A stretch of DNA of 64,000 bases from an uncultured bacterium (GCA_963834265.1 CAWIAU010000001.1:588346-652345); one strand, 5' to 3'; positions 11,742-39,525 are shown, numbered from the stretch's first letter. A program made the numbers and translations. The notes: generated from the sequence alone by a model not told the origin.

Positions 11742-11785
11742 TAACTGATTGTCCCCTTTGTTTCTGATACTAGTATAACAGGGTA

Positions 11786-12883
11786 CTATCGAACAGTTAA
11801 AGTCTTTGAATCAAACGTGATGTTTTTTGGCAGAATGACGACTTGCTTCGGACCGACTTCTACTCGTCCGGCTATCCAGGATTTAAAACCAACTTTAGCA
11901 CTGACTTCCTGAGCTTTCTGTGCGTCAGCTTCCGGTAGATATATAGCGTAGCCGGCGCCCATATTGTAGTTTGCGTACATTTCTTCCGCGTTGTTTCCGC
12001 TCTGCCCTGCTATAAAATCAAATACTTCCTGTGCAGGTGGCACCACATGCATAATATAGCTATATTCCGCTGTGGCGCGCATTAATTTGCGCCAGCCGTG
12101 TCCCGTAATATTCGATAAATAATGAATGTCTATGCCGGCGTTAAACAAAGCCTCCACCAGACCTGCGTACAAATGTGTGGGTGTTGATAATGCTTCACCG
12201 TAGCTTAAATCCCCTGAAAATCTGGTAGCATAACCTTCGGGTAGCTTATGGGCGATTTCTCTCGTCATGCTGATGCCATTGGCATGTACGCCGCTGGATT
12301 CTATCAGTAAAATTACATCACCGGCTTTCAGGTTCTTCTCGCTGACAAGCCGTTTTTTGTCTCTGATCACGCCAAAGGCAGAGCCGGCCAGTTCCAGTCT
12401 GCCATCTTTTACGATTCCTGGTAGTGACTGTGTCTCGCCACCGCCCCATGTAATTTTGGCCTGATCACAGGCCCCTCTCCAGCCTTTTATGAAATCTTCG
12501 GTTATTTTATTATCAGCCAGCCATGCGTAAGAACTCGAAGACCAGTAAGCATTACTGACAACCGGAGTAGCACCGACACTCACCAGATCATTCACAAATG
12601 TAGCTACTGTGTCCTGTGCAATCTGCGCAAAAAATGATTTACCGGTTGCTTCATAAATAGATTGGGTAATAAGGCTTTTGGTACCTAATCCTTCCTGAAC
12701 CAAAGCACCGTACATATCGCCCATATCGAATACATAAGCCGACTCCCCTCGTGTTCCGTCGACTTCTTTGAAGCCAAATGGCATGTTTGAAGCGGTTGCC
12801 AATCCCTCTTTCTGGGCCAGAATCTTAGCCGGATCCGCAACGTCATAGTCGACCATTGCATGATAATCAAGTTTTTTACTCAT
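11786..12883 (-). CDS. purM: Phosphoribosylformylglycinamidine cyclo-ligase (AIR synthase family)
   Basis: AIR-synthase-type blocks (VQEGLGTKSL, WGGGETQS, HGWRK) and a position inside the pur cluster directly after purL. Confidence 0.8.
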   Translation of the reverse strand: MSKKLDYHAMVDYDVADPAKILAQKEGLATASNMPFGFKEVDGTRGESAYVFDMGDMYGALVQEGLGTKSLITQSIYEATGKSFFAQIAQDTVATFVNDLVSVGATPVVSNAYWSSSSYAWLADNKITEDFIKGWRGACDQAKITWGGGETQSLPGIVKDGRLELAGSAFGVIRDKKRLVSEKNLKAGDVILLIESSGVHANGISMTREIAHKLPEGYATRFSGDLSYGEALSTPTHLYAGLVEALFNAGIDIHYLSNITGHGWRKLMRATAEYSYIMHVVPPAQEVFDFIAGQSGNNAEEMYANYNMGAGYAIYLPEADAQKAQEVSAKVGFKSWIAGRVEVGPKQVVILPKNITFDSKTLTVR

Positions 12884-12975
12884 TCAAAGCATCCCCATCT
12901 AATATTAAGTATATACTACAATTACATGACACGGATGGTTATGCTACACTGTTAAGTAATGAGGAAAGCGCTTTA

Positions 12976-13944
12976 GTGAAGACGACTGTAAACCGACGTA
13001 TACAGATTCTGGCAGGCAGTCACCATCCGGAACTTGCCACTAATGTTGCTACAAGACTGGGCATGAAGCTCAGCGGTACAAATCTTCAGCATTTTGCTAA
13101 CGGTGAAATAAAATGTCGTTTGGATGAGTCAGTCCGCGGCTCCGATGTGTTTATCTTTCAGACACATGATAAGCCCGTTGGGGAAGCAATTTTTGAGCAG
13201 GCTATGCTGATAGATGCCGCGAAGCGCGCTTCGGCCAAACATATTACTGCTGTCTGTCCGTTCTTTGGTTATGCCCGTCAGGATCGCAAGTCAGCAGGAC
13301 GCGAGCCCATTACAGCACGTCTGGTTGTTGATATGCTGGCTGTTGCCGGTGCACATCGGATCGTGGGGGTTGATCTGCACTCCGGACAGATTCAGGGCTT
13401 CTTTAACGGTCCTTTTGATCACTTAGTTGCCTTACCCGCTTTGGCTGCTCATCTGAAAGAACGATTCGGCAAAGACTGCATGGTTGTGTCTCCTGACGCC
13501 GGCCGCGTGAAGCTGACCGAACGCTACGCATCACGTCTCGGCGTTGATCTGGCAATAGTACATAAAAAAAGACCGGGCAACAATCAATCTAAAGTTCTTG
13601 GCATCATCGGCGACGTACGGGACCAACACTGTATTATTGTAGATGACATGATCGATACAGGGGGCACACTTTGCGCTGCAGCGGCAGCACTTATGGAAAA
13701 TGGTGCCAAATCAGTGTCCGCTGTTGCGACCCATGGTTTGTTTTCTGAGCCGGCTATCGAACGTCTCAAGGTCTCGCCTATAATAAATATTATAGTCACA
13801 GACACGCTTCCATTGCCTAATCATGGCAACCCGCTCTCAAATGTCGAGGTAGTATCTGTTGTTGATCTGATCGCTGATGCCATACAGGCAATTTTTGAAA
13901 AAGGCTCCGTTTCTGCCATATTTGACGGCGAGCACCACCACTAA
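12976..13944 (+). CDS. prs: Ribose-phosphate pyrophosphokinase
   Basis: Motifs GSHHPELA, DLHSGQIQGFF and the PRPP loop VDDMIDTGGT. The GTG start at 12976 is preceded by GAGGA. The longer ATG-12856 version would overlap purM and add a non-homologous N-terminus. Confidence 0.9.
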   Translation: MKTTVNRRIQILAGSHHPELATNVATRLGMKLSGTNLQHFANGEIKCRLDESVRGSDVFIFQTHDKPVGEAIFEQAMLIDAAKRASAKHITAVCPFFGYARQDRKSAGREPITARLVVDMLAVAGAHRIVGVDLHSGQIQGFFNGPFDHLVALPALAAHLKERFGKDCMVVSPDAGRVKLTERYASRLGVDLAIVHKKRPGNNQSKVLGIIGDVRDQHCIIVDDMIDTGGTLCAAAAALMENGAKSVSAVATHGLFSEPAIERLKVSPIINIIVTDTLPLPNHGNPLSNVEVVSVVDLIADAIQAIFEKGSVSAIFDGEHHH

Positions 13945-13963
13945 ATTTTAAGGCTGATCCGGA

Positions 13964-14794
13964 ATGCCGTATAAATTTTTTTCTAAAAACGGGCAGGTTT
14001 TGCCTGCCCGTCAGGCAGTAGTCCCGATAGATAATATTGCATTTGCCTATGGCTTCGGCGTTTACGAGACGATTCGTGTAGATAAAGGAACTATTTATTT
14101 TCCCAATGAACACCTGGGTCGGTTATTGCAATCGGCTCAAATAATCGGTCTTGAACATCGATTTAATATTGCCGGCATTAATGATTCTATTAGCGAGCTT
14201 ATTCAGAAAAATAAGACGGATACCTGCAATATTAAAATTTTGCTAGTCGGTGGTGCCTCAAAAGATCAGGCAAACCTGTATATTATGTGCCTAAATCCGC
14301 TGTTTCCGGACCGCAAACTTTATCGTGATGGCGCCAAACTTATAACATACGAAGCAGAACGACCATTCGCACATGCAAAAAGTCTGAATATGTTACAAAG
14401 CTATCTTGCTTATCGTCAGGCAAAAGAGAATGATGCATATGATGCCCTGCTGATTGATCGAAACGGGCATATTACGGAAGGAACACGTACCAATTTCTTT
14501 GTTGTTATCGGCAGAACACTAATCAGCCCGCCGGAAGATAAAATATTAATGGGTGTTATGCGCAAAATAGTGCTGAAAGTAGCTCAGGAAAATAACTTTA
14601 AGATCAGACAGTTCAGTATTAAACCAACTGATCTGGAAAACTATGATAGTGCATTCCTTACCAGCACTTCATCCAAAATAATGCCTGTAAAATCGATAGA
14701 CGGTAATATTTTTACAAATAGTTCACCCGAACTTCGTGAATTAATGAAAATGACCGGAGAATTTTTAACGAATTGTAAGGGTGAGCTAAGCTAA
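13964..14794 (+). CDS. Class IV PLP-dependent aminotransferase (aminodeoxychorismate lyase / D-amino-acid or branched-chain aminotransferase family)
   Basis: Motifs FAYGFGVYE, the Lys region HAKSLNML and EGTRTNFF. Confidence 0.8.
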   Translation: MPYKFFSKNGQVLPARQAVVPIDNIAFAYGFGVYETIRVDKGTIYFPNEHLGRLLQSAQIIGLEHRFNIAGINDSISELIQKNKTDTCNIKILLVGGASKDQANLYIMCLNPLFPDRKLYRDGAKLITYEAERPFAHAKSLNMLQSYLAYRQAKENDAYDALLIDRNGHITEGTRTNFFVVIGRTLISPPEDKILMGVMRKIVLKVAQENNFKIRQFSIKPTDLENYDSAFLTSTSSKIMPVKSIDGNIFTNSSPELRELMKMTGEFLTNCKGELS

Positions 14795-16054
14795 CCGTCG
14801 ACCGATGTCTGTACGATATTGCATGCCTTCGAATTTTACAACATCTATAGCCTTGTATGCTCTGGAAAGCGCTAGATCCAGCGTATCACCTGTGGCTGTA
14901 ATGGCCAGCACGCGGCCGCCGGCGGTTTTGAAGCCATCCTCATCCTTTGTGGTGCCAGCGTGAAATACGACTATATCATCCATTTCCCCCACCTCGTCTA
15001 AACCACTGATAGGTAATCCCTTTGTACAATCCCCAGGATAACCGTCGGAAGCCATAACTACGCAGACGGCAAATCCTGAGCGCCAGAAAATTTGACTTGG
15101 ATCGAGCGTACCGTTGACGCAAGCAGTTAAGATTTCGTACAGATCGCAGTCGAGCAACCTCATATAGACTTCGGCTTCCGGATCGCCGAAGCGGGCGTTA
15201 AACTCTATTACTTTCGGATTGTCACCGTCAATCATTAACCCCGGATACAAACAGCCGATAAACGGCGTTCCCATAGATGCTAAGCCGTTTAAGGCCGGCG
15301 CTACAACTGCATTCCTTACCTGCTTCATGTGTGATTCCGTGACCCATGGGACCGGCGCAATTACGCCCATGCCGCCGGTATTCGGTCCTTTGTCGCCGTC
15401 ATAAATCTGTTTATGATCCTGTGAGCTCGGAAATAACACAAAATTCTGTCCATCCGATAGTGCATGTGTAGAAACTTCCTGTCCCTTCAGAAAGTCTTCG
15501 ATAACAACTTTGGATCCGGCTTCGCCAAAAATTTTCTGAATCATTATCTGGTCGATTACTTCCTGCACCTGATTGAATGTCTCGCATATTACTACGCCCT
15601 TACCGGCGGCCAGACCATCGGCCTTAATCACCACCGGCAATGGCCGGCTTTTTGCATATTCTAAGGTTGCAACAGGATCATTAAAGTTTTTATATTCTGC
15701 AGTTGGAATATTCTGTTTTTCCATCAGATCTTTAGAAAAAGTCTTGGATGATTCAATTAGTGTGGCCGCCTTCGTTGATCCGAAGATCTGCATACCAGCA
15801 GCCTGAAAAGCGTCGACTACTCCGGCTTCAGAGGCAACCTCCTGGCCAACAACCGTGAAATCAATATTGTTCTGCTGTGCAAACTCCAGAAGTTTTCCGA
15901 CATCAGTAAATCCGATTGGCACATTCTCTGCAACCAGAGCAGTGCCTGCGTTTCCGGGAGCTACGTATATTTTGTTCACATGTTTTGATTGTTTCAGCTT
16001 CCACGCCAAAGCATGTTCCCGTCCTCCGCCGCCAATTATAAGTATAGCGGCCAT
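14786..16054 (-). CDS. purD: Phosphoribosylamine-glycine ligase
   Basis: Motifs ILIIGGGGREHALAWKL and GDKGPNTGGMG, with ATP-grasp architecture. Confidence 0.95.
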   Translation of the reverse strand: MAAILIIGGGGREHALAWKLKQSKHVNKIYVAPGNAGTALVAENVPIGFTDVGKLLEFAQQNNIDFTVVGQEVASEAGVVDAFQAAGMQIFGSTKAATLIESSKTFSKDLMEKQNIPTAEYKNFNDPVATLEYAKSRPLPVVIKADGLAAGKGVVICETFNQVQEVIDQIMIQKIFGEAGSKVVIEDFLKGQEVSTHALSDGQNFVLFPSSQDHKQIYDGDKGPNTGGMGVIAPVPWVTESHMKQVRNAVVAPALNGLASMGTPFIGCLYPGLMIDGDNPKVIEFNARFGDPEAEVYMRLLDCDLYEILTACVNGTLDPSQIFWRSGFAVCVVMASDGYPGDCTKGLPISGLDEVGEMDDIVVFHAGTTKDEDGFKTAGGRVLAITATGDTLDLALSRAYKAIDVVKFEGMQYRTDIGRRLA

Positions 16055-16057
16055 AGA

Positions 16058-16750
16058 TTATAGCTCCTTTCTGCTAAGAAATTCCTGCCGATTTTTTATA
16101 AAATCAGCCAGATCTCCGGCAATATATTGCTTTTCTACCGCCTGCACGCGTTTCTGCAAACTTTGCGGCGTATCATCTGGCGTAACCACGGTTTTATGTT
16201 CGACAACAGCCGGTCCTTCGTCGTAATCATTCGCCACGACATGTAGCGTTTGTCCGGCATAAGAAAGTCGCTCAGCAATTACATAGTCTGCGACCAGCAT
16301 TCCGTGGAGCCCTTTTGTCTCAGGCAAAAGCCCCGGGTGTGTATTAAGCATGCGACTTTGGTATGCTTTGGTATATTCCGGACGCCAGCCGAATTTATGT
16401 ACCAGATTAGGACCAATTTTTTTCATATAACCCAGAAGCACGATCAGATCGAAGTTTCCTTTGCCAAGTAAATTTAGCAGAGCTAATTCTTCGCTCACTG
16501 TTTGACAGCCAGGTGTGACTATCTCGTCCGGTTTAGCCGGATGAGTAAGCCTGCTGATGTAGCATGATTCAACAGATAGCTTTAGTTCATGATTCAGGTC
16601 AGCAATTTTTTTGAATACCCCGGCTGATTTATTATTAGAAATAACCATCCTGACGCGCGGGGCATCGCTATGCCCTGCCCAGGCACGAATAATTGTCTCC
16701 GTTGTTGTGCCTTCGCCTGACGCCAGAACAGCAACAGACGGATTTTTCAT
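16058..16750 (-). CDS. purN: Phosphoribosylglycinamide formyltransferase
   Basis: Formyltransferase motif LNTHPGLLP. The gene is tightly packed between purF and purD. Confidence 0.85.
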   Translation of the reverse strand: MKNPSVAVLASGEGTTTETIIRAWAGHSDAPRVRMVISNNKSAGVFKKIADLNHELKLSVESCYISRLTHPAKPDEIVTPGCQTVSEELALLNLLGKGNFDLIVLLGYMKKIGPNLVHKFGWRPEYTKAYQSRMLNTHPGLLPETKGLHGMLVADYVIAERLSYAGQTLHVVANDYDEGPAVVEHKTVVTPDDTPQSLQKRVQAVEKQYIAGDLADFIKNRQEFLSRKEL

Positions 16751-18255
16751 ATGTTAATTTTTTTTACAGAGTCGACAGGCTGGAATTTTACCGCTGTATC
16801 ATTATGTACAGGATTATGTGTTGCGGCCCCGGTTTTGATCATCTTTATTCCCTTTGCACGTTTGCCGATACTTATCGGATAAATGCCGTCGAAACATGAT
16901 GTAGAAAAAGTATCGCCCGGCAAACCTGTAGCCTCAATCATGCCATCATATGACAAAAAGTGCAATGAGTCAGCTCCCAGATATTCACACATTTCAGCTA
17001 CGCTCATCCCGGCACCTATAAGCTCTGATTGATCGGGTGTGTTAATACCATAAAAATCAGGGTATCTGATGGGCGGACAGGTGATCAACAGGTGCAACTC
17101 TTTGGCACCGGCATCTTTTAGCATCTGCACAACCTGTCGTACGGTTGTGCCACGGACGATCGAATCATCTACCATAACAACCCGTCGTCCCTTGATACTA
17201 CCTACCACAGGATTAAGTTTAATTTTAAGATCGCGCTTGCGAAGCTCCTCTGTCGGTCTGATAAAGGTACGGTTGATGTACCGGTTTTTGATAAGTCCCA
17301 TCTCGAAGCGCATACCTGTTCCCTGTGAATAGCCCAGAGCCGCCGGTATACCGGAGTCCGGCACCGGCACAACAATATCGGCATCAATCGGGAATTCCCT
17401 GGCCATCTGACGTCCGAAATTTTCACGTACGTGATGCACGTTACGCCCCATGAGTACACTGTCAGGTCGGGCAAAATAAACGAATTCAAATATATCCAGC
17501 TTTGGATTTGGTTTTGCGACCTGATGTGATGTCAGACCATTTTTATCTATAACAACCAGCTCGCCGGGTGCTACATCCCGCAAGAAGGTTGCTCCCACCG
17601 TATCCAGTGCACAGGTCTCAGAAGCAATAACGTACCCTCCTTTTGGCAATGTTCCGATAGACAGCGGCCGGATACCGCATACATCACGAAATGCAATCAG
17701 TTTATCGGCATCAAGAGCCAGTGAAGAGAATACTCCTGTAAATAGCGGGTAAGCTTTGATAATAGCTTGTTCCAGACTCTCTCCGTCAATCATATAACAT
17801 TCAATAGCCTTGCTCATCATCAGGGAATCATTTAATAAATCTGTGTCAATCCCCCTGTCTTTCAAAAACTCTTCAAGTCTGGTCCAGTCGGGCAGATTAC
17901 CGTTGTGGGCATATGCAAACTGAGTGTTTTCGTCGACACTTATCACCGGCTGGTTAAAGAAGGTGTCAGTACCTCCGGATGTTGAGTAACGATTGTGTCC
18001 GATTGCCAGAAGTCCGGGCAAATTATCCAGATCTTCATCTTTGTACACATTTGATACCAAACCAAAGCCGGTATGGCGATGCAGCTTTTTACCGTCAGAA
18101 CTTGCTATACCTGAGCTTTCCTGTCCACGATGCTGCAAAGCCCAAAGGCCGTAAAATGATAATCTGGCAGCCTCGGGCGCACCATAAACTCCGAAAACAG
18201 CGCATTTTTCCTGAAGTCCTAAATCTTTGGAAATATTAAATCCTGTCGCCGACAT
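16747..18255 (-). CDS. purF: Amidophosphoribosyltransferase
   Basis: Ntn Cys after a propeptide (EKCAVFGVYG) and the PRTase motif VVMVDDSIVRGTT. Confidence 0.95.
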   Translation of the reverse strand: MSATGFNISKDLGLQEKCAVFGVYGAPEAARLSFYGLWALQHRGQESSGIASSDGKKLHRHTGFGLVSNVYKDEDLDNLPGLLAIGHNRYSTSGGTDTFFNQPVISVDENTQFAYAHNGNLPDWTRLEEFLKDRGIDTDLLNDSLMMSKAIECYMIDGESLEQAIIKAYPLFTGVFSSLALDADKLIAFRDVCGIRPLSIGTLPKGGYVIASETCALDTVGATFLRDVAPGELVVIDKNGLTSHQVAKPNPKLDIFEFVYFARPDSVLMGRNVHHVRENFGRQMAREFPIDADIVVPVPDSGIPAALGYSQGTGMRFEMGLIKNRYINRTFIRPTEELRKRDLKIKLNPVVGSIKGRRVVMVDDSIVRGTTVRQVVQMLKDAGAKELHLLITCPPIRYPDFYGINTPDQSELIGAGMSVAEMCEYLGADSLHFLSYDGMIEATGLPGDTFSTSCFDGIYPISIGKRAKGIKMIKTGAATHNPVHNDTAVKFQPVDSVKKINI

Positions 18256-18310
18256 TTATCCCCTTTTTCATTTAACCCTCGTGCACCAACAATTACTTCA
18301 ATTATAACAT

Positions 18311-19135
18311 TTACGCTTTTGTAGCTGCAAGAGTGGTTTGCCTCAGCAGGATTGCGGTAGTAACCGGCCCTACTCCGCCCGGCACAGGGGATAACGTTAT
18401 ATCTTTATCCTGAAAAGCTTGTTCGTCTACATCGCCAACCAGATTGCCTGCTACGTCAACATTTGTTCCGACATCAATCACAACTGAGTCTTTGCCTACG
18501 AAGTCACTGGTTACAAATTTTGCTTTGCCTATAGCTACTACCAATACATCTGCCTGACGGGCGACATCGGCCAGATCTTTTGTACGTGAGTGACAGATGG
18601 TGACTGTGGCATTCTGATCCAGCAGTAAATGCGCCACAGGCTTGCCGACAACACGGCTGCGCCCTATTACAACGGCTTGTTTGCCTTTCAGATCAACTTG
18701 GTGAGACCTGAGCAATTCCATTATGGCCAGAGCTGTAGCCGGAGCAAAGGCTTCAAGTCCGCTGACTAATCTGCCCAGACTTACAGGATTAGCACCATCA
18801 ATATCTTTGGCGACAGGTATAAGTTCCAGTAAACTATCGATATCTACATTCTCAGGTAGCGGAGTTTGAAGTATTATACCGTGAATGTTTTTATCATTGG
18901 CTATACGAACAAGCTCACCGGCAATCCCGACCTGCGTAGCATCAGAACCCAGGTCAATAATTTTACATTCTATACCAACCTGTTCAGCTTTTTTGGCTAT
19001 AGAACGAACATACCATTGTGCTGATTCGTCATCCGTTGCAACAATTATGGCCAGCGTCACAGATTTTTGTGCGGCCAGCACAGCGGTTTCTTCCAGGATG
19101 GATTTTGCCAGGCTACGGCCATCCAGCAGATTCAT
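18311..19135 (-). CDS. folD: Bifunctional methylenetetrahydrofolate dehydrogenase / methenyl-THF cyclohydrolase
   Basis: Motifs GRSRVVGKPVAHLL and SPVPGGVGPVTTA. Confidence 0.95.
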   Translation of the reverse strand: MNLLDGRSLAKSILEETAVLAAQKSVTLAIIVATDDESAQWYVRSIAKKAEQVGIECKIIDLGSDATQVGIAGELVRIANDKNIHGIILQTPLPENVDIDSLLELIPVAKDIDGANPVSLGRLVSGLEAFAPATALAIMELLRSHQVDLKGKQAVVIGRSRVVGKPVAHLLLDQNATVTICHSRTKDLADVARQADVLVVAIGKAKFVTSDFVGKDSVVIDVGTNVDVAGNLVGDVDEQAFQDKDITLSPVPGGVGPVTTAILLRQTTLAATKA

Positions 19136-19761
19136 CAGATATTTTTTCCGATCTTGCCGCGAACCTGTTCTACCACCATGTTGGCAATACTCATGGCATT
19201 TGCAGCGTCGTGAATTGCCCCGCTAAGCGTTCTTTTGACTTCCTCATCTGTAATTGCCTGCCGGTTAATTTCTATATTAACTATCGAAGACTCAAGTGCC
19301 GAGCTGGCCATACTCGCTGCCACAGCTACATCGGATATGACATTCGGGTTGCCGGCTTCTACCAACTCTACACAGATTTCTACGAGGCGTCGTGTTAACT
19401 GGGCAATTTTTACCGGAGGCTCAGCTGCTCCGGAAAGTGCTGCCTGGATAGCTTCTGCTTTAGCTACTTTTTCTTCTGTAGATTCACCCGGAAGTTTGTA
19501 GGCGTCACCCACTCCTGCATAGGCATTTGCATCCTCCGAAGCAAGTGCCAGTGCCTGCAAACGCAGGGTTTGCGCCTGAGCAGCTAAGTCGCTCATTCTT
19601 ACTTCACGGTCCGCCCATTTCGGTCCTGTAGTATAAATCGTAACCATACCGATCAGTCCTGCAGATGTAGCCGCTGCTATAGCAGCTACTGCCCCGCCCC
19701 CCGGAGTAGGTGTTCTTGCTGCCAACTCGCTCAACCAGTCTTCTAAAGTTTGTTGATTCAT
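19135..19761 (-). CDS. Cyclodeaminase/cyclohydrolase family protein (FTCD C-terminal domain type, FchA-like)
   Basis: An all-helical protein with RTPTPGGGAVAAIAAATSAGL. Its stop overlaps the folD start (TGATG). Confidence 0.8.
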   Translation of the reverse strand: MNQQTLEDWLSELAARTPTPGGGAVAAIAAATSAGLIGMVTIYTTGPKWADREVRMSDLAAQAQTLRLQALALASEDANAYAGVGDAYKLPGESTEEKVAKAEAIQAALSGAAEPPVKIAQLTRRLVEICVELVEAGNPNVISDVAVAASMASSALESSIVNIEINRQAITDEEVKRTLSGAIHDAANAMSIANMVVEQVRGKIGKNI

Positions 19762-19770
19762 ATTAATAAC

Positions 19771-20274
19771 TTATCCGATTATTTTTTGCCAGCCTTCGGA
19801 CTGAAGCTTCTGGTCTGATTCTAATACCTTGTCGTGTTGTTCTTTTCGAAACGCAGCGTAGCGAATTGCCAGTTCAGGATTATTAAGCGCAAGGACTTCT
19901 ATAGCGAAAAGACCAGCGTTTTTACCACCATTTTCGGGCATTGTTGCAAGTGGTATGCCGGGAGGCATGGCTACATTCGAAAACAAAGCTTCGTGATCAT
20001 GTCCGTCACGCTTTACAGGAATAGCCAGCACAGGAAGGATTGTGTTGGCTGCCATTACGCCTGCCAGATGTGAAGACATGCCCGCACCCGCGATAATAAT
20101 TTTGAGACCACGGTCAGATGCTGTACGAACCCATTCTACTGCTTCATCCGGAGTGCGGTGAGCTGATAACACACGGATTTCGTATTCAATGCCAAACTCT
20201 TCCAGTACTTTTGCCGAAGCGCTAAAAATATCCAGATCAGAAATCGATCCCATTACAATGCCTGCCTGTGCCAT
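19771..20274 (-). CDS. purE: 5-(carboxyamino)imidazole ribonucleotide mutase family (PurE)
   Basis: Motifs GSISDLD, SAHRTPD and AGMSSHLAGV. The start at 20274 has AAGGAG 9 nt upstream. The longer ORF to 20364 would overlap purC. Confidence 0.9.
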   Translation of the reverse strand: MAQAGIVMGSISDLDIFSASAKVLEEFGIEYEIRVLSAHRTPDEAVEWVRTASDRGLKIIIAGAGMSSHLAGVMAANTILPVLAIPVKRDGHDHEALFSNVAMPPGIPLATMPENGGKNAGLFAIEVLALNNPELAIRYAAFRKEQHDKVLESDQKLQSEGWQKIIG

Positions 20275-20351
20275 AGTATTTTTCTCCTTTATAGTATTCA
20301 TAATAGCAGAAGCTTTACCCGCGTGCTTCAAAAAGTTACAATAGAAATAAC

Positions 20352-21311
20352 ATGGGAGACACAATCACACGCACAGATTTTACATTTCCCGGGCAAACAG
20401 CGGCGTATCATGGTAAAGTCCGCGACGTCTACACTATTGGTAACGACCAGGTTGTTATAGTTGCGAGTGATCGGATTTCGGCTTTTGATGTGATTTTGTC
20501 CCGGGGTATACCGCATAAGGGTCAGATGCTTAATCAGCTCTCAGCATACTTTCTGGATGCCACCAAAGATATTGTTCCGAACTGGCTGCAGGCAATGCCG
20601 GACCCCAATGTTAGCGCCGGACTACGGGCTGAACCCGTTATGATCGAGTTGATTATACGTAGCTGTCTGGTCGGCCATGCATGGCGTGAGTATCAGGATG
20701 GCAAACGGGAATTATCAGGTGCTGTTATGCCCGATGGAATGTCAGAGTATGATCTCTTTCCAGAACCACTTATAACACCGACAACCAAGGCCGACGAGGG
20801 TCATGATGAAGATATTACTGAAGCAGAGATTTTTGAACAGGGTCTGGCGACACCAGAGGAATGGCAACAGCTCAAAGACTATATGAAGAAATTATTTGCC
20901 CGCGGTCAGGAAATGGCCCGTGTCCGGGGCCTGGTACTGGCTGATACTAAGTACGAGTTCGGCCGGCTTGACGGCAAGCTTATTCTGATTGATGAAGTGC
21001 ATACTCCTGATTCGTCACGATACTTTTATGCTGATGGATATGATACATATACTGGCGGCGATAAAAGCGTAAAACCCAGGCAGTTATCCAAAGAATTTGT
21101 GCGGGAATGGCTGATGGATCAGGGATTCAGCGGCCGGGATGGACAGACAATGCCTGAACTGACTGACGAGTTCGTACAAAGTGTATCCGACCGATATATG
21201 GAGCTCTACGAAGAAATGACAGGTCAGAAATTTGTCAAAGCACCAACGGATAACATCCTGAAGCGTATTGAAAATAGCGTTAACGAATACCTAAAAAAGA
21301 GTACTGCGTGA
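20352..21311 (+). CDS. purC: Phosphoribosylaminoimidazole-succinocarboxamide (SAICAR) synthase
   Basis: Motifs HGKVRDVY and ASDRISAFD. TACAAT lies 9 nt before the ATG. Confidence 0.95.
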   Translation: MGDTITRTDFTFPGQTAAYHGKVRDVYTIGNDQVVIVASDRISAFDVILSRGIPHKGQMLNQLSAYFLDATKDIVPNWLQAMPDPNVSAGLRAEPVMIELIIRSCLVGHAWREYQDGKRELSGAVMPDGMSEYDLFPEPLITPTTKADEGHDEDITEAEIFEQGLATPEEWQQLKDYMKKLFARGQEMARVRGLVLADTKYEFGRLDGKLILIDEVHTPDSSRYFYADGYDTYTGGDKSVKPRQLSKEFVREWLMDQGFSGRDGQTMPELTDEFVQSVSDRYMELYEEMTGQKFVKAPTDNILKRIENSVNEYLKKSTA

Positions 21312-22699
21312 AGCCCGTTATTCTGCCTGATCCTTCTGGCACACCCAACTACAACAGTATTGATCCGCTGGACGGACGTTATTACGAACAGGAACTTGCC
21401 CGTTACCTGTCAGAACGCAGCCGAATTGCCTATCAGGCATATGTTGAAACCGCCCTGGCACATACTTTGGCAGATGTTAGTATCTGTACTCCGGAAATTG
21501 CAAATCAGATCGAAGATGCTGCCAGCAAAATTACAGTGGAGGAAGTATACGAGCAGGAAAAGACAACAAAACATGACATCAAGGCACTGGTCAACTGTAT
21601 TAAGGCTGGAATCAGTGATGAAGCCAAGCCGTATGTTCACTTCGGCGCCACTTCATATGACATTATTGCTACTGCCAATGCTTTACAGATGCGCGATGTT
21701 ATTAGTAATGTGGTTTTACCCCGCGCGCTGGCTTTGCAGGACACGTTAGTAGCGTTAGCTGAGAAATATGCTGATACACCGCAAGTCGGGCGTACGCATG
21801 GTCAGCATGCGGTACCGATCACATTCGGCTTCGCCATTGCAGAATATGTTGAGCGCCTGGGCTATAGTATCGGGGCTTTAAAATGGCTCAAAGACGAGCT
21901 ACGTGGTAAATTCTCAGGTGCAACCGGCTCCTACAATGCTTTAAGTGTTTTTGTTGATGATCCCATAGCATTCGAAAAAGCTCTGCTTGACAAACTGAAC
22001 CTGCAGCCTGCTCCCTATTCCACGCAAATTATTCCTCCCGAGAATCTGATCCGGATCATTGATGAACTTAAGAATATGTCAGGTATCATGGCAAATATTG
22101 GTCACGACATGCGTAATCTGCAGCGCAGCGAGATAGCTGAAGTTCGCGAACGATTCGAGGAAGGTCAAACCGGATCTTCGACCATGGCGCACAAGCGCAA
22201 TCCCTGGAACTTTGAGAATGTTGTCAGTTTGCACAAGCAGGTGCTGGCCCAGTCTCTTAATGCGTCACAAAATCTGTCCAGCGAACATCAGCGCGATCTG
22301 ACCGATTCGGCCAATTCCCGCTTTTATGTTCTGCCCGTAGCGATTGTCTGCAATATGCTATCCCGCCTGGATCGTATCATGAGCAAGCTCGAAGTTGACG
22401 AAGCCAACATGCAACGCAATCTGATCATGAGCGCCGGAGCAATAGCCGCTGAGCCTTTGTATTTGCTGTTTGAAAAATATGGCCACACTGAAGCCCACGA
22501 AAAGTCAAAAGCACTCGCCCATAAGACACTGGAAGCCGGTATATCTCTTGCAGAAATCATAGCTCACGACGACGAAGCCAAATCGTACTGGGATAAATTT
22601 TCTGACACTGAGAAACAAATCATCCAACAGCCGGAAAAATACTATACCGGCCGTGCCACTCAAAAAACAAAAATGATTATCAGTAGCCGAAAGCAGTAA
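21308..22699 (+). CDS. purB: Adenylosuccinate lyase
   Basis: Fumarate-lyase signature GSSTMAHKRNP. The GTG start overlaps the purC stop (GTGA). Confidence 0.95.
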   Translation: MKPVILPDPSGTPNYNSIDPLDGRYYEQELARYLSERSRIAYQAYVETALAHTLADVSICTPEIANQIEDAASKITVEEVYEQEKTTKHDIKALVNCIKAGISDEAKPYVHFGATSYDIIATANALQMRDVISNVVLPRALALQDTLVALAEKYADTPQVGRTHGQHAVPITFGFAIAEYVERLGYSIGALKWLKDELRGKFSGATGSYNALSVFVDDPIAFEKALLDKLNLQPAPYSTQIIPPENLIRIIDELKNMSGIMANIGHDMRNLQRSEIAEVRERFEEGQTGSSTMAHKRNPWNFENVVSLHKQVLAQSLNASQNLSSEHQRDLTDSANSRFYVLPVAIVCNMLSRLDRIMSKLEVDEANMQRNLIMSAGAIAAEPLYLLFEKYGHTEAHEKSKALAHKTLEAGISLAEIIAHDDEAKSYWDKFSDTEKQIIQQPEKYYTGRATQKTKMIISSRKQ

Positions 22700-33322: not shown

Positions 33323-33489
33323 TATATAGAACTTTCGCACTTTCCCACAGCCCCGGAACTCATCTGAGCTGCTGCAAATTGCCCATCTTCTCTCAATGTA
33401 GCTACGGCTACCCCTCCGGAAGCTGAACAATTTTCGCTAAACCCAGGCTGACCTCCGGAATCCATGTCAAAGTGCGAAAGTTCTATATA
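33323..33489. repeat. 21-bp perfect inverted repeat pair enclosing a 125-bp core
   Basis: TATATAGAACTTTCGCACTTT (33323-33343) is the exact reverse complement of AAAGTGCGAAAGTTCTATATA (33469-33489). Confidence 0.9.
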
Positions 33490-33498
33490 CTGGATAAC

Positions 33499-33948
33499 AT
33501 GAAAATAAAGATTGAGCTTGTCCGCGCAATTGGCAGTGAATTTGTAAACCGTAAGCTGAAGTCAATCGTAATAGTTTTTGGGGTCATCGCACTGATCAGC
33601 CTGATCCTGACAGTATGGCTGGCAACAATAAGCGCATGGTGGCTGCTTCTGTTACTTCCCTTCCTTATTTTTACGATGCTTGGCTTTCTGGCAGGTCTGG
33701 CGGCAAGAGTGGTCATTAAAACGTTACGTCCCGAGCTAACGCGATCTCAAAAAACCGATGTAGGAAACTTCGTTGATAAGCTGGAGCGCGTCGCCGAAAA
33801 TATTCAGACTCCTATGTTCATCATTGTCTTTCGTGTAGTACGCGATATTATCCGCCCAGGTGAAAGAACTTTTGTCCGGTCTGTGGCCAAAGACAGCACC
33901 ACGCTGCATAAGGATTTCTCTGAACTTGAGCAAAATTTCAAAAACTAA
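33499..33948 (+). CDS. Small membrane protein, unknown function
   Basis: Two adjacent hydrophobic helices. I prefer the ATG at 33499. The listed upstream GTG at 33472 lies inside the inverted-repeat arm. Confidence 0.6.
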   Translation: MKIKIELVRAIGSEFVNRKLKSIVIVFGVIALISLILTVWLATISAWWLLLLLPFLIFTMLGFLAGLAARVVIKTLRPELTRSQKTDVGNFVDKLERVAENIQTPMFIIVFRVVRDIIRPGERTFVRSVAKDSTTLHKDFSELEQNFKN

Positions 33949-33964
33949 TTCAAAACTGATAATC

Positions 33965-34510
33965 TTATTCAGTTACATTTTTCATACGATCCGATAACTT
34001 TCGGACAGTATTGCAATTACGTATAGTTACCTGCCCGTATAAATCAGTCCCGATGATTTTCATTAAGCCACTTCGTGTAACGTTCTTACGATCAACGCGC
34101 CATAAAATGGCGCCTGGCGTATAAACTACGTCATCTATATCCGGTTTGATAATAAGATTTTTGACTATATCGGGGGTGTTTACTTTATCCCACAGGAACA
34201 GTACATCGCATTTCATCGTATCATCGTTTTTCCATGTATCAGGTAGCTTTTCAGCAATTTCATGAATATTTCTGATGTCTTTGATAACCAGCTTTATGGC
34301 AAATCCAATCTTTTTCTTGATAGCGTTCTCTAATTTTGCAGTAAGACTTTTTGTATCAAGAGATTTATTTGCGAATATAACATTTCCGCTATTTATATAT
34401 GTAGTAACTGAGCTCATACCAGCCTGCTCGAAAGTTGCTTTGAGCTCTTTCATATCAACTTTGTTCTTGCCGCCAACATTTATACCGCGAAGTAATGCTA
34501 CGTATATCAC
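33965..34510 (-). CDS. DUF1697 domain protein
   Basis: The N-terminus MIYVALLRGINVGGKNKV is characteristic of DUF1697. Confidence 0.8.
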   Translation of the reverse strand: MIYVALLRGINVGGKNKVDMKELKATFEQAGMSSVTTYINSGNVIFANKSLDTKSLTAKLENAIKKKIGFAIKLVIKDIRNIHEIAEKLPDTWKNDDTMKCDVLFLWDKVNTPDIVKNLIIKPDIDDVVYTPGAILWRVDRKNVTRSGLMKIIGTDLYGQVTIRNCNTVRKLSDRMKNVTE

Positions 34511-34604
34511 ATAATCAGTTTATCAAATAACATGATGCGATTCTTCACCCAAGAATAAATTAAATTATTGCGTTATATGGAAATGAGTTGTATAATATAT
34601 AGTT

Positions 34605-36122
34605 ATGGACACACCGTATCCCGGACCAGGGAATGGCAATAAACGCGCAGCTGCAGCAATTACATCTAGCCTTGAGTTAATGCAGGAAATTCACCATCGT
34701 CTTCCTGATGTTGAGATTCGTGATGAACAAATAGATGCACTTGATGCTATTGAGGAGAATGAACAGGCAGGAAATCCGTCAAGTTTGATTGTTTTGCCTC
34801 CGGGCTTGGGTAAAACCGTTATTATGGCTGCTGACACTCGTCGTCGCTTATTGCGAGACCCTGCAGCAAGGGGGGCATTTCTGAATGATAAAAATGATAT
34901 TCTGAATCAGTCCCGTGATCGCTTCGAAAAAATCGTTGGGGAGGAGTTTACTTATGGCTTGTTCAGCGGTGATGGTCGTGATTATGATGAACTATCCGTA
35001 TTGTTCGGTTCTTTTCAGGTTATGCGCGAGTGGCGATATGCATTCCTGAAGGATGAGTTTAAATTCGGAGTTGTTGATGAGAGCCATCATGGTATGGCTC
35101 CGACATATAAACCCACGCTGGATTATTTTGACTTCGAACATTTACTGGGGGCGACGGCAACACCGGATCGGTTAGACATCAAAGATATCAGAGATATTTT
35201 CGGACCAGAGATTTACAGTATGACACTGGAAGTGGCTATAGCACGTCGTTTGCTTGCCGCTGTTGACTATCATGTTATAAGTGATGAAATTACGGAAACG
35301 GGTGTTGTTCTGGACGATGACGGTCATCGTTACGATGCAAATGAGTTTAACCGAACAATATTTGCTCCCCGTCGGGATGAAGAAATTGCTGACATCGCAA
35401 AACGCTACGCGCTTAGACTTAAAAATCCCACAACAATGGGTTTTTGCAAATCGATCGAACATGCGGAAAAGTTCTCCGGACTATTTGAAAATGCGGCTGC
35501 CCTGCATTGTGATTTAAAGCGTCCTAAGCAACGTGAGTTATTGGATCGATTCAGGAGTGGAGATCTAAAAGCTTTGTTTACAGTAAATATGCTTGATGAA
35601 GGAATCGATATACCTGAGGCTAATCAGGTGCTATTCCTGAGTGCTACAGGATCAAAGAGGAAGTATTTGCAGGAATTAGGCAGAGGCCTGCGAAGGACCA
35701 AGACCAAAAAGCGGGTACAAGTATTGGACTTTGTAAATAATGCTGAGCGGTTATTGCTTGTTGATCGTATGTGGCGGGATGCCGCTATTATTGCCGGGGG
35801 AGATGATCCTGCTGACAAAGAAATCTTTGATATCAACATCAGCAAAATACATTTTGACGAATCCTCGCGTAGTGCCCTGCAAATATTACGCGCAATAAAC
35901 GGCAGAGTATATAGGGCTGATCAGGCTGTGCCCGCAGAATCGTTGCGCGCTTCAGGTCTTGCGAAAGAATTAGGCATGTCGAAACCGGCCTTATTGGCAT
36001 TAGCTGCTTCTTTAAAAATCGCGCCTTCAGTTTTTCCAACGCAAAGAGGCAGTAGAGTTCCCTATTTTGTATCTGACGACGTCGAGCGTTTACGGCTAGC
36101 TCGTGATCATCTTTTTCAGTAA
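34605..36122 (+). CDS. SF2 DEAD/DEAH-box helicase (ResIII + helicase-C type) with a helix-turn-helix-like C-terminal tail
   Basis: Motifs PPGLGKT, VVDESHH, GATATPDR and LQELGRGLRR. TTGCGT-17-TATAAT ends 8 nt before the ATG. Confidence 0.85.
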   Translation: MDTPYPGPGNGNKRAAAAITSSLELMQEIHHRLPDVEIRDEQIDALDAIEENEQAGNPSSLIVLPPGLGKTVIMAADTRRRLLRDPAARGAFLNDKNDILNQSRDRFEKIVGEEFTYGLFSGDGRDYDELSVLFGSFQVMREWRYAFLKDEFKFGVVDESHHGMAPTYKPTLDYFDFEHLLGATATPDRLDIKDIRDIFGPEIYSMTLEVAIARRLLAAVDYHVISDEITETGVVLDDDGHRYDANEFNRTIFAPRRDEEIADIAKRYALRLKNPTTMGFCKSIEHAEKFSGLFENAAALHCDLKRPKQRELLDRFRSGDLKALFTVNMLDEGIDIPEANQVLFLSATGSKRKYLQELGRGLRRTKTKKRVQVLDFVNNAERLLLVDRMWRDAAIIAGGDDPADKEIFDINISKIHFDESSRSALQILRAINGRVYRADQAVPAESLRASGLAKELGMSKPALLALAASLKIAPSVFPTQRGSRVPYFVSDDVERLRLARDHLFQ

Positions 36123-36201
36123 AGTAAACATTTTTTTAAAAATAATGCAATCATAAAATACTATTGATTTATAATTAAATATCTTCTATAATACACATAT
36201 T

Positions 36202-37863
36202 ATGGGAGAACTTCTTTACGGACCGGAAATTAGTATAGATATTGAGCGCACTCAATCTGTATTCGAGACTGCTCATGAATTAAATTTGCAGATTTCTGAA
36301 CAGAATGAACGATTTGCTACTGCACACGAGATATTTGTTGATGAACCCGAGGTACTTAGATTAGCCGAACAAGGAATAGCAGAAGAACAACAGGAAACAT
36401 TTACAAATTTATCAACCATCGGACATAGTGAAGCGCAAGTCTATACATCATTAGGCGTGCTGAGCCTGTACTATGACAGTGAGTTAGAAGAAACACAGGC
36501 AAAAGCTGATGCGGCGCAAGCAGAAGGCGATGCAAAATCTGATCAGTTTGAAATAATTAAACAACAACGCGAGCAAGATGAAAGAAGTAAACTTGAGGAT
36601 ATACTCGGCCACGTTGAACGGCTGGCACCTAAAGCCCTGGAACGAGTCAAGGCATTACTGGACGAACGAATAGTTGGTACTGTGTCCAGCCAGGAAATTC
36701 TCGATTTAGAGGAAACGATTCTGGATTTATTCACTGAGGTAGATGAGCATAAGGAACATATAGATTCTATAGCTCGTCAAAAAATTTCATTAACTGAACT
36801 GGATAGGCAGGCTGATGATACCTGGGCACTACCACAGGCACTTATGAAGGTGCTTGGAAATGACACAAGTCAGTGGGTTTTGATAGATGAATTACCCGTC
36901 GATCCTACCTTAAGCCGGAGCGGCCATGAACGATACGCAGAGCTTCGTGGAAGGCACATAGACCAACCTGATGCATCGATTTATGCTGCTCTGTATTTAT
37001 CAGAACATGATAGCGAAACAGTTACAGTAGATGAAATTGCAGGTTTTCTGTACACACCCGAAACAATTGCCGGCATTAGTAATAACAACCTGCGGGCTCG
37101 CGTGACTACTCTTTTGGGACCAATAGCCGGAGAGTGTTTGCATAAAATTTTATTATCTGAGGGATATATCCTTCAGTACGGATGGCGCCGTAAATTGGAA
37201 AAAAATGGAAGCGATGACGTAAAAATTGTTTCCAGACATCGTATATACCGTGCAGTGCCACTTAATGATCTTAGTGTTCTGGAAACAGATACATCCTCAC
37301 AAGAGGATTATAAGGATGATTTCGAAGTAACACCGGAAATTGTAGGTCTGTTCACCGATTTTAAGCAGGAACGGGCAGCAAAACCCCCAGAAGCAGTCAT
37401 AGCCTCCAACCCAGATTCAGCAATCCGACTGCCTGCGCACAGAGATGGCACCCGATTGAGGACTCCGGCAAAGCCCGAAGAAGAGTTGCCGAGGTGGGTT
37501 AAAGAGTTTGAGAAAGAGGTTATGGATATACTAGAAGAACTTGAAATGTCCGATATGCTGACATCAGAAGAGGGCGAGTTAATTAAGGTTGCCCGGCACA
37601 AAAGTCGGAGCCGTAGCTTTGCTACTGAAGAAACTCTGACAAAACTTTACAATGCAGGCCACATGAGACAGCTATCAGGTATTCCTCGTCCACGCTGGGG
37701 AGACGTAAAAATTACTGCTCCAGATATGATCATAATGAAAATGTTTACTACCAAAAGAGAGCTACTGGGTAAAGGCCAGCCCCGACGTCCGGTTGCAGAA
37801 AGTATTATCGAGGGCGTTGTAGCTGACTACTTTACCCACAAAAGAGAGATAAATCCGCGATAA
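36202..37863 (+). CDS. Hypothetical acidic protein (553 aa)
   Basis: A long ORF with a Glu/Asp/Gln-rich, helix-prone N-terminal half. TTGATT-17-TATAAT ends 9 nt before the ATG. I recognise no domain. Confidence 0.65.
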   Translation: MGELLYGPEISIDIERTQSVFETAHELNLQISEQNERFATAHEIFVDEPEVLRLAEQGIAEEQQETFTNLSTIGHSEAQVYTSLGVLSLYYDSELEETQAKADAAQAEGDAKSDQFEIIKQQREQDERSKLEDILGHVERLAPKALERVKALLDERIVGTVSSQEILDLEETILDLFTEVDEHKEHIDSIARQKISLTELDRQADDTWALPQALMKVLGNDTSQWVLIDELPVDPTLSRSGHERYAELRGRHIDQPDASIYAALYLSEHDSETVTVDEIAGFLYTPETIAGISNNNLRARVTTLLGPIAGECLHKILLSEGYILQYGWRRKLEKNGSDDVKIVSRHRIYRAVPLNDLSVLETDTSSQEDYKDDFEVTPEIVGLFTDFKQERAAKPPEAVIASNPDSAIRLPAHRDGTRLRTPAKPEEELPRWVKEFEKEVMDILEELEMSDMLTSEEGELIKVARHKSRSRSFATEETLTKLYNAGHMRQLSGIPRPRWGDVKITAPDMIIMKMFTTKRELLGKGQPRRPVAESIIEGVVADYFTHKREINPR

Positions 37864-38161
37864 TAAATCTTATTCTTTAATAGATGTCACCAGATAAATA
37901 GTCCTCTATCATAGACGAACTTAGTAATAGCAAAATACACTGCATTCAAAATAATTTCATGTTACGTGCTTAACCCGGCAAACGAGGAGCCTACATTTGT
38001 ACCACATTGCATAAATGAAAATACTGAAATCGTGTGTCACATGAACGCAATCATCTATATCCCGAGACATATTTTCCAAGAACATGATTTTACTTAGTAA
38101 AGAAATAATATACATAAAATGCAGGCTTGAATCCGGTGGTTGTGAGGATATAATACCTGGT

Positions 38162-38584
38162 ATGAGCAGTACTATAAAAACACATGTTAATGATTCCAGT
38201 GTCAATGATTTTATTAATGCCGTGAGCGATGAGGCTAAGAAAGAAGATAGCTTTACGCTTCTGGAAATGTATTCCAGAATCACCGGTGAAGAGCCCAAAA
38301 TGTGGGGTTCGAGTATTATCGGCTTCGGACAATATCATTACAAGTCAGAACGCAGCAGGCAGGAGGGCGACTGGCTTCTCACCGGATTTTCGCCGCGTAA
38401 GCAAAACCTGACTCTATATTTTATGCCGGGGTTTGATGGTTATGCAGAAACGCTTACAAAGCTCGGCAAGCATAAGACGAGTGTCGGATGTTTGTATATT
38501 AAGAAGCTGGCTGATGTAGATAAGAGTGTTCTGGAAAAGTTGATCAGGCAGTCTTATTTGGAAATGAAAAAGAAACACAGCTAA
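38162..38584 (+). CDS. DUF1801 (YdhG-like) domain protein
   Basis: The blocks VNDFINAV ... GFGQYHYKSERSRQEGDW ... LYIKKLADVD are typical of DUF1801. TTGAAT-16-TATAAT ends 7 nt before ATG 38162. Confidence 0.75.
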   Translation: MSSTIKTHVNDSSVNDFINAVSDEAKKEDSFTLLEMYSRITGEEPKMWGSSIIGFGQYHYKSERSRQEGDWLLTGFSPRKQNLTLYFMPGFDGYAETLTKLGKHKTSVGCLYIKKLADVDKSVLEKLIRQSYLEMKKKHS

Positions 38585-39142: not shown

Positions 39143-39260
39143 TGCCACGGAGGAGGGATTCGACCTTGCCATGACAAATTAAAATTAAATTTGTCATGGC
39201 AACTCTTCGGGTGGCAGGCGGCCAATGTCCACAGGGCATTGTCGTTCGAATCCCCCGCCA
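39143..39260. other. Composite palindromic / structured element containing inverted tRNA T-arm-like fragments
   Basis: A perfect 15-bp hairpin (39166-39180 with 39188-39202) is nested in a 12-bp helix (39143-39155 with 39203-39216). A second hairpin domain follows at 39217-39259. The flanks GGAGGAGGGATTCGACC and GTCGTTCGAATCCCCCGCC form an imperfect inverted pair resembling the tRNA-Gln T-arm and acceptor. Confidence 0.6.
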
Positions 39261-39305: not shown

Positions 39306-39380
39306 TGGCTGGGGAGGAGGGATTCGAACCCCCGAATGCCAGTACCAAAAACTGGTGCCTTACCACTTGGCCACTCCCCA
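39306..39380 (-). tRNA. tRNA-Gln (anticodon UUG), CCA encoded
   Basis: The 75-nt sequence UGGGGAGUGGCCAAGUGGUAAGGCACCAGUUUUUGGUACUGGCAUUCGGGGGUUCGAAUCCCUCCUCCCCAGCCA folds as a cloverleaf. It has a U1-A72 pair, the anticodon loop UUUUGGU, and close resemblance to bacterial tRNA-Gln. Confidence 0.93.
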
Positions 39381-39429: not shown

Positions 39430-39525
39430 AAAAACTGACCTGCGGTCGGCGTGCCAGTACCGATTAATTGATTTGGTTGCGATGAATCGCAACTGGCTGG
39501 TGCCTTACTACTTGGCCACTCCCCA
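39430..39525 (-). other. tRNA-Gln-like fragment: 5' half plus anticodon-stem 3' strand, with a 35-nt hairpin insert and no T-arm
   Basis: UGGGGAGUGGCCAAGUAGUAAGGCACCAG matches the real gene at 28 of 29 nt. A 35-nt insert containing GUUGCGA-UUCA-UCGCAAC follows, then GGUACUGGCA, then GACC-GCA-GGUC and a U-run. There is no GGUUCGAAUCC and no 3' acceptor strand. Confidence 0.6.

Follow-up and report, generated by a model that had tools for sequence, protein, structure and literature searches.

A conserved pairing of a short-form SF2 helicase with a newly defined protein family in Saccharibacteria: a candidate two-part DNA-motor system

Two adjacent genes in a 64,000-nucleotide stretch of DNA from an uncultured bacterium (GCA_963834265.1 CAWIAU010000001.1:588346-652345; the whole stretch is referred to below as the window) raise the question of whether a superfamily 2 (SF2) helicase and the large acidic protein encoded behind it, here called ORF2 (open reading frame 2), work together and, if so, at what task. 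An earlier note had described them as an accessory two-gene module and had read them, speculatively, as phage-defence genes or the cargo of a mobile element. The analysis presented here indicates that the two genes are strictly linked, that ORF2 belongs to a family newly defined in this work, and that the pair may represent the two parts of a DNA-motor system residing in the chromosome of one lineage of Saccharibacteria. The genomes of these bacteria are very small, and a large share of the genes in them is without known function. The two genes are as follows.

34605-36122, plus strand: SF2 DExH helicase/translocase, short form, 505 amino acids (aa) (reading of the open reading frame, Pfam)
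36202-37863, plus strand: ORF2, acidic, 553 aa (reading of the open reading frame; family without a match in Pfam, NCBIfam, PHROGs or PADLOC)

Both open reading frames were confirmed as the helicase and the Glu/Asp-rich protein described previously, with 79 nt between them on the same strand.

Linkage of the helicase and ORF2 genes

The strongest evidence for a unit comes from gene neighbourhoods. At 13 of 13 distinct loci with a short-form helicase (the window, L001, L002, L003, L008, L009, L019, L021/L032, L022, L028, L029, L033 and L035), the helicase gene lies directly upstream of an ORF2 relative in the same order and on the same strand, the paired helicases measuring about 483-523 aa where complete. 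A short-form helicase was never seen without ORF2, nor was any examined ORF2 gene of the linked clade (defined below) found without its helicase, and the earlier proposal of a two-gene module thus withstood the co-occurrence check. No other gene of the window had a match within 5-10 kb of the pair at the other loci, and common flanking genes between paired loci were confined to the close pair L029/L032. In L035, which represents a deep-branching lineage, the stop codon of the helicase gene overlaps the start codon of ORF2 (TAATG, 5999-6003), with GGAGGA 5 nt upstream; this layout is an operon arrangement, and the two genes look translationally coupled in that lineage, unlike in the window, where ORF2 has a separate leaderless-type promoter. 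The two proteins also diverge in parallel. Across the paired loci, identity ranges from 41 to 86% for the helicase and from 22 to 66% for ORF2, and the pairwise values for the two are correlated over 55 non-independent pairs drawn from 11 loci (Pearson 0.88, Spearman 0.63).

ORF2 itself is without a match in Pfam, NCBIfam, PHROGs or PADLOC, as its earlier description as a protein with no recognisable domain would suggest, but it is not the orphan it was taken for. An exhaustive profile search of representative sequences revealed 139 representative clusters matching the ORF2 profile, mostly of 450-600 aa, whereas a word-indexed protein search with a 55-sequence ORF2 alignment had returned four proteins only; a metagenome scan with a 10-sequence alignment gave four loci. 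So far the family has been found only in Saccharibacteria or in untitled metagenome contigs, and the relatives that carry record titles are Candidatus Saccharibacteria or Saccharimonadales; the window likewise belongs to a genome of Saccharibacteria, a group of the candidate phyla radiation. No second member of the family lies within the window.

In a neighbour-joining tree, the helicase-linked ORF2 proteins form one clade inside this larger family, which also includes stand-alone members. All seven tree members of that clade with examined loci (the window's ORF2, P0002, P0003, P0004, P0012, P0015 and P0025) are paired with a helicase. Three members outside it stand alone: P0035 sits between the genes for fructose-bisphosphate aldolase and pfkB, P0019 comes after groEL, and P0021 comes after truB and upstream of rpsO-pnp.

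The relation between the two states is illustrated by L019, the paired locus closest to the window, whose pair lies directly upstream of rpsO-pnp and which is syntenic on both flanks with L030, a stand-alone ORF2-family locus. The upstream flank is a conserved gene of 547 aa in L019 and 582 aa in L030, with 78% identity over the best 158-aa stretch, a similarity missed by blastp and shown by tblastx and direct translation; the downstream flank consists of rpsO and pnp (65% and 69% identity). Between these common flanks, L019 holds the helicase and ORF2, and L030 holds truB, an ORF2 relative and genes of 358, 115 and 564 aa for which no Pfam family is recorded. The synteny thus indicates that the ORF2-family gene is resident in a housekeeping neighbourhood there and that the helicase is the added element.

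Architecture of the two proteins

All four helicase motifs quoted earlier (PPGLGKT, VVDESHH, TATPDR and QELGRGLRR) were read in the sequence. Motifs I (GxGKT), II (DExH), III (TAT) and VI (QxxGRxxR) are intact and lie within a core of approximately residues 36-390, and both RecA-like domains were detected by Pfam past the cut-offs (ResIII, 7.9e-24; Helicase_C, 1.3e-14), which places the protein in SF2. The core motif residues are invariant across 24 short-form relatives, and only about 35 residues precede the ResIII motor domain. Among solved structures, 7CLG (SauUSI) comes closest (E = 2.3e-56), with a match only over SauUSI residues 227-606, i.e., its ATPase region. Matches in PADLOC-DB 2.0 include mREase_IV (1.5e-38), PbeA and type I R models; they are scattered across several unrelated systems, and their best stretches fall within the ATPase core. 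The same core also matches XPB (PDB 6p4f and 2fwr), RadD (6jde) and Pfam ERCC3_RAD25_C. Neither the helicase nor ORF2 contains a nuclease, toxin, integrase or other effector domain detectable with Pfam, NCBIfam, PHROGs or PADLOC; no Pfam match to PLD-family (phospholipase D) nucleases was found in either protein, and no SRA or target-recognition domain was matched by the helicase tail or by ORF2.

Behind the core follows a distinct C-terminal region.

35775-36119, plus strand: helicase C-terminal tail, residues 391-505, isoelectric point (pI) 8.3 (blastp, hhalign, alignment)

The first 55 or so residues of this tail are common to longer relatives of the helicase (hhalign of short-form tails against long-form extensions, 97.5% probability over those columns only). 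The last 65 or so residues (LAKELGMS...FPTQRGSRVPYF) are confined, according to blastp of the tail, to the short forms, that is, to the ORF2-paired ones. This end of the tail is conserved: among the 24 short-form relatives, F477, P478 and G482 never vary and Y487 hardly does. It also includes the part that had been thought to resemble a helix-turn-helix (HTH), an assignment that no profile supports: the best profile match in the window's helicase, HTH_5 at E = 0.13, falls short of the cut-off, none of the 24 short-form helicases matches an HTH family at E <= 0.5, and Pfam scans of these 24 proteins revealed no recurrent extra domain.

In a collection of 5.8 billion proteins, 25 clusters combine at least 48% identity to the helicase with a length of 368-517 aa, and all are short forms; the one of 368 aa lies on a 1.5-kb contig and may be cut. 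Helicase matches of 575-861 aa carry C-terminal arrays of HNH_repeat (PF18780), INT_rpt (PF14882) or DUF4379 (PF14311), or repeats of about 60 aa of the WTAEDS type. The extension of the nearest long forms is built from five or six tandem repeats of the latter kind (WTAEDSxRIY...LPS...PFxG). As a separate observation, P0166-P0172 (e.g., L034 6001-8511) show long-form repeats of the pattern W-T/S-A-E-D-S-x-R-I-Y...L-P-S...P-F-x-G, which Pfam recognises partially, as HNH_repeat. No ORF2-family neighbour was present at any long-form helicase locus examined. A full-text literature search combining the Pfam repeat name with 'helicase' returned no paper, and no described function was found for the repeat-bearing helicases.

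ORF2 has a pI of 4.8 and consists of 19% Asp+Glu; its C-terminal domain is basic and the remainder acidic. Structure models and the family alignment divide it into the following regions, where pLDDT is the predicted local distance difference test score.

36220-36816, plus strand: N-terminal long helices, coiled-coil-like, residues 7-205, pI 4.35 (AlphaFold2 model)
36817-36915, plus strand: low-confidence linker with the motifs W208-x-x-P211 and D229-E-L-P-V-x-P235 (alignment; pLDDT < 50)
36916-37266, plus strand: winged-helix-like domain with a long beta-hairpin, as modelled, residues 239-355, LQYGWRR...RIYRA (models, pLDDT 74-92)
37267-37491, plus strand: acidic, disordered, length-variable linker, residues 356-430, pI 4.4 (pLDDT < 50; largest insertions and deletions in the alignment)
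37492-37860, plus strand: basic C-terminal helical domain, residues 431-553, pI 9.0 (model, pLDDT 93-97)

The modelled N-terminal helices span residues 7-44, 49-141, 143-160 and 164-205 (pLDDT mostly 60-92), and this region contains the conserved motifs DQNxRF and GIAEEQxETF. The two motifs of the first linker are the best-conserved short motifs of the family: W208 is the sole invariant column among 55 family sequences, and P211, D229 and P232 are nearly invariant. The DE(L/I)PVxP motif and the LQYGWR...RIYR strands are further features conserved in these 55 members. The model of residues 239-355 shows helices and, after them, a long beta-hairpin, for which the top Foldseek matches were the winged helices of ArsR, MepR and TFE-alpha (best E = 0.36, not significant); weak MarR and Trans_reg_C matches each occurred in one of the 55 members. 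A fold search with the full-length model gave non-significant matches only, mostly to proteins with long helices or coiled coils. When residues 200-553 were re-modelled with 18 sequences and compared with PDB and BFVD, nothing fell below E = 0.07, and the same was true of the ORF2 profile against PDB sequences. Pfam scans of the 55 relatives found no recurrent extra domain, and their alignment contains no invariant His/Lys residues able to form a PLD-type HxK site.

Several relatives document the modularity of the C-terminal domain. Nine proteins of 640-790 aa without any Pfam domain (P0077, P0088, P0095, P0102, P0108, P0114 and P0131-P0133) have in common with ORF2 only its C-terminal domain of about 130 aa, located at their own C-termini. 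Since these proteins are otherwise unrelated, the C-terminal domain is an independent module. A Rosetta-stone link to the helicase through such long proteins was considered and rejected: they match no Pfam family at all and are not helicases. In P0004 and P0005, the C-terminal domain is replaced by other sequence, and in P0011 by about 750 extra residues. P0011 (L019 4974-8441), the orthologue closest to the window's ORF2, is 1155 aa long; its extra residues, which follow the first 400 or so, have no Pfam match and, judged by eye, resemble several winged-helix-like repeats.

Explanations for the pair

Taken together, the domain content, the strict gene linkage, the parallel divergence of both proteins and the position of the linked ORF2 genes as one clade of a larger family are direct observations, as are the native base composition of the pair and its absence from those collections of mobile elements that were searched. 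The helicase gene has a GC content of 0.449 and a GC content at third codon positions (GC3) of 0.374; the values for ORF2 are 0.439 and 0.350, against window means of 0.452 +/- 0.026 and 0.417 +/- 0.046. GC, GC3 and codon use of both genes lie within about 1.5 standard deviations of the window mean, and their codon-usage distance is below the window average, so that the composition check suggested earlier detected no foreign signature. No ORF2 relative was found in IMG/VR, GenBank phages or PLSDB plasmids, and the only viral match of the helicase is 25% identical.

The explanation that we favour, and to which we assign an even chance, is that the pair constitutes two parts of one chromosomal DNA-motor system restricted to one Saccharibacteria lineage, namely a nuclease-free translocase and an adaptor acting in trans. 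The helicase would be an ATP-driven SF2 DExH double-strand DNA translocase or helicase of the SauUSI, type I R-subunit, XPB or RadD kind, a motor with neither a nuclease nor a built-in target-recognition domain. ORF2 would be an elongated, acidic protein that may dimerise through its coiled-coil-like N-terminal region and may bind DNA through its winged-helix-like domain and its basic C-terminal domain. Short-form helicases would have lost a fused, presumably DNA-binding repeat array and gained the clade-specific tail of about 65 aa, and ORF2 would have taken the place of the array, acting in trans to provide binding or targeting of DNA, perhaps together with regulation, while docking on the helicase, possibly via that tail. 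A role in genome maintenance or transcription-linked remodelling appears preferable to one in immunity.

A number of points weigh against this explanation. It presupposes a physical interaction between helicase and ORF2 that we infer. The winged-helix assignment comes from a model that gave no significant Foldseek match (E > 0.1 throughout), and ORF2 shares no homology with the long-form extensions or with the short-form tail (hmmsearch; hhalign probability < 2%). The best matches of the helicase core are restriction and defence motors. Several paired loci lie near restriction-modification, recombinase, zeta-toxin, type IV secretion or relaxase genes. The pair is rare, with about 25 clusters at 90% identity among the 5.8 billion proteins, and its flanking genes differ among genomes; both facts also fit an accessory gene pair.

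A second formulation, which we regard as possible and hold more tentatively, is that of a previously undescribed two-component motor, seen so far in Saccharibacteria only and composed of a SauUSI-like translocase minus the fused repeats and a fast-evolving partner with a coiled-coil-like region and a winged-helix-like domain. Working without a nuclease, it would serve either a novel type of immunity or DNA/chromatin remodelling peculiar to these bacteria. The partner would have been recruited from the uncharacterised ORF2 family, and the hosts would be episymbionts with reduced genomes.

It is rather unlikely, in our assessment, that the pair defends against phages or plasmids, with ORF2 as the sensor or recognition subunit that guides a SauUSI-like motor. 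Such a system would need an unrecognised effector or would have to work nuclease-free, for instance through the stripping or stalling of foreign replication. The affinity of the helicase core to SauUSI and to the mREase_IV, PbeA and type I R models fits this idea, as do the two-subunit precedent of CglI/NgoAVII (PMC7913695), the faster evolution of ORF2 relative to the helicase, the swapped C-terminal domain at some loci, and the rarity and variable flanks of the pair. So does the company it keeps at three loci: a few kb from the pair, L002 holds a methyltransferase and ResIII pair, likely a restriction-modification system, together with a serine recombinase (9914-16778), and L003 holds PLDc_2, HTH, zeta-toxin and type IV secretion genes (16562-21677), while the L029 pair lies near M78/HTH and relaxase genes. 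On the opposing side, neither protein has a nuclease, toxin or other effector domain, ORF2 offers no invariant residues for an HxK site and no PADLOC match, no helicase accompanies its relatives outside the linked clade, which sit in housekeeping neighbourhoods, and the closest paired locus sits between a conserved gene and rpsO-pnp. Moreover, composition is native, and the searches of phage, plasmid and viral collections found no ORF2 relative. The phage-defence interpretation offered earlier is therefore unsupported.

Still less probable is that descent alone keeps the two genes side by side, functionally uncoupled, with ORF2 as a lineage-wide housekeeping protein (e.g., nucleoid- or RNA-associated) encoded next to a repair helicase by chance. 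ORF2-family members do function without a helicase in other lineages, and genes of the family recur beside truB, rpsO, pnp and groEL. However, adjacency persists while all other flanking genes change, the start and stop codons overlap in L035, neither the short-form helicase nor an examined linked-clade ORF2 was ever seen alone, and the two proteins diverge in parallel. Descent alone would also be consistent with the fact that in the window each gene has a promoter-like element of its own.

34568-34596, plus strand: promoter-like element of the helicase gene, TTGCGT (34568-34573), 17-nt spacer, TATAAT (34591-34596), 8 nt to ATG (sequence read)
36164-36192, plus strand: promoter-like element of ORF2, TTGATT, 17-nt spacer, TATAAT, 9 nt to ATG (consensus scan, 10 of 12 matches)

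The boxes and spacings of these twin promoters are as reported earlier, yet the near-consensus label fits only in part: the -35 box of the helicase gene matches TTGACA at three of six positions, and the site fails the consensus-scan criterion. No Shine-Dalgarno sequence precedes either gene, and no terminator-like site lies between them. TATAAT is kept 7-9 nt before the ORF2 ATG at four of five orthologous loci inspected (L001, L002, L003 and L028) and occurs 9-10 nt before the orthologous helicase start at L002, L003 and L029. The leaderless-type arrangement is probably functional, as judged from these sequences. A perfect TATAAT 7-10 nt before ATG is found at 6 of 64 long open reading frames in the window, with near-perfect boxes at several more, and its placement is therefore a habit of the genome and not a mark of the pair. 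Many window genes lack a Shine-Dalgarno sequence and carry a TATAAT-like box 6-10 nt ahead of the ATG (among them those starting at 1573, 26158 on the minus strand, 39621, 42134, 20352 and 61342), and other window genes rely on ribosome-binding sites of the GGAG type; leaderless and Shine-Dalgarno-led genes seem to occur together in this genome. In the window genome, each gene of the pair may be expressed from its own leaderless-type promoter, and read-through from the helicase gene is also possible.

The last explanation concerns the surroundings of the pair. The features named in the earlier note (DUF1697, DUF1801, an inverted repeat at 33.3 kb and tRNA-Gln with its fragments) were all found.

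33323-33489: perfect inverted repeat, 21 nt, 125-nt spacer, arms at 33323 and 33469
33965-34510, minus strand: DUF1697 gene (domain scan)
38084-38584: DUF1801 gene (domain scan)
39149-39163: partial tRNA-Gln copy, 15 nt of the 3' part
39166-39202: palindrome with 18-nt arms
39306-39380, minus strand: tRNA-Gln
39497-39525: partial tRNA-Gln copy, 29 nt of the 5' part, 97%

The inverted repeat, which has no second copy in the window, folds as one long local hairpin (-62 kcal/mol, z = -6.4) and has no Rfam match at E <= 0.1. It sits between divergent open reading frames, and the open reading frame at 33472-33948 has a GTG start that overlaps the right arm. The tRNA-Gln fragments all lie within 170 nt of the tRNA, with no copy near 33-34 kb, and neither the tRNA nor the inverted repeat is repeated across the pair; the fragments look like scars of local duplication or rearrangement and not like island boundaries. 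As in the pair itself, no integrase, recombinase, transposase, nuclease or toxin domain was detected in any of the eight flanking open reading frames scanned (32.7-42.1 kb), in agreement with the previous description. The view that a mobile or integrated element, with the inverted repeat and tRNA-Gln as its boundaries, carries the pair as cargo draws on the partial tRNA copies on both sides of the tRNA, on the unique perfect inverted repeat, on the mostly unknown-function genes in between and on the varying placement of the pair across genomes, but it is largely refuted and very improbable, given the absence of flanking repeats and of an integrase, the single local hairpin, the native composition and the fact that the two genes alone travel together elsewhere whereas the DUF1697, DUF1801 and membrane genes do not.

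With the cargo view set aside, the two-part chromosomal motor remains the explanation that we favour. The tempting annotation of a 'defence island at a tRNA' has been removed as unsupported. What is gained is a protein family newly defined by 139 representative clusters and absent from Pfam, NCBIfam, PHROGs and PADLOC, one branch of which shows tight coupling to a DNA motor of restriction type that has no nuclease. If a complex forms, it would provide an example of a helicase that swapped fused DNA-binding repeats for a separate adaptor subunit, as well as the first functional handle on the ORF2 family. The value of the finding is moderate, since it comprises a well-supported gene linkage and a new family and not a demonstrated new mechanism.

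Comparison with known systems

The nearest relatives of the window helicase outside the paired clade are the long-form helicases of the candidate phyla radiation, at 35-50% identity. They have the same core and the same first 55 or so residues after it; unlike the window pair, they are single proteins with repeat arrays and no ORF2 neighbour. Literature searches on leaderless transcription in Saccharibacteria, on repeat-bearing helicases and on Saccharibacteria defence helicases returned nothing specific. The XPB and RadD equivalogs of NCBIfam score far under their cut-offs (43.3 vs 610 bits for XPB and 68.1 vs 720 bits for RadD). Archaeal XPB is commonly encoded beside its partner Bax1, a two-gene arrangement from which the window pair differs in that ORF2 matches no Pfam family, that of Bax1 included.

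Among restriction systems, SauUSI of Staphylococcus aureus, a type IV modification-dependent enzyme, is a single 953-aa chain in which an N-terminal PLD nuclease (residues 1-191) is followed by an SF2 ATPase and, at the C-terminus, by a domain for target recognition (PMC7913695). Its ATPase core is of the same subfamily as the window helicase, and the PADLOC mREase_IV models match the same region. Unlike SauUSI, the window pair lacks an N-terminal PLD nuclease, and the 7CLG match stops at residue 606 of 953, short of the C-terminal domain with which this family recognises modified cytosine. CglI/NgoAVII, an R2H2 assembly, separates a helicase H subunit from an R subunit with a PLD nuclease and a B3 recognition domain (PMC7913695). 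The likeness lies in the two-gene design of a nuclease-less SF2 motor and a separate DNA-recognition subunit, whereas ORF2 has no PLD or B3 domain or candidate catalytic residues and no methyltransferase adjoins the window pair. Nor does the pair fully match any one described defence system in PADLOC-DB 2.0, where ORF2 has no matches. With regard to its central domain as modelled, ORF2 may resemble the ArsR/MarR winged-helix regulators and architectural proteins that combine a winged helix with a coiled coil, but it is far larger than the regulators, acidic overall and multi-domain, and has no significant sequence or fold match to them. A helicase with a DNA-binding partner, as ORF2 is proposed to be, is a known kind of system; the new part is the partner's family, which is absent from the four profile libraries searched and has one clade strictly linked to this motor.

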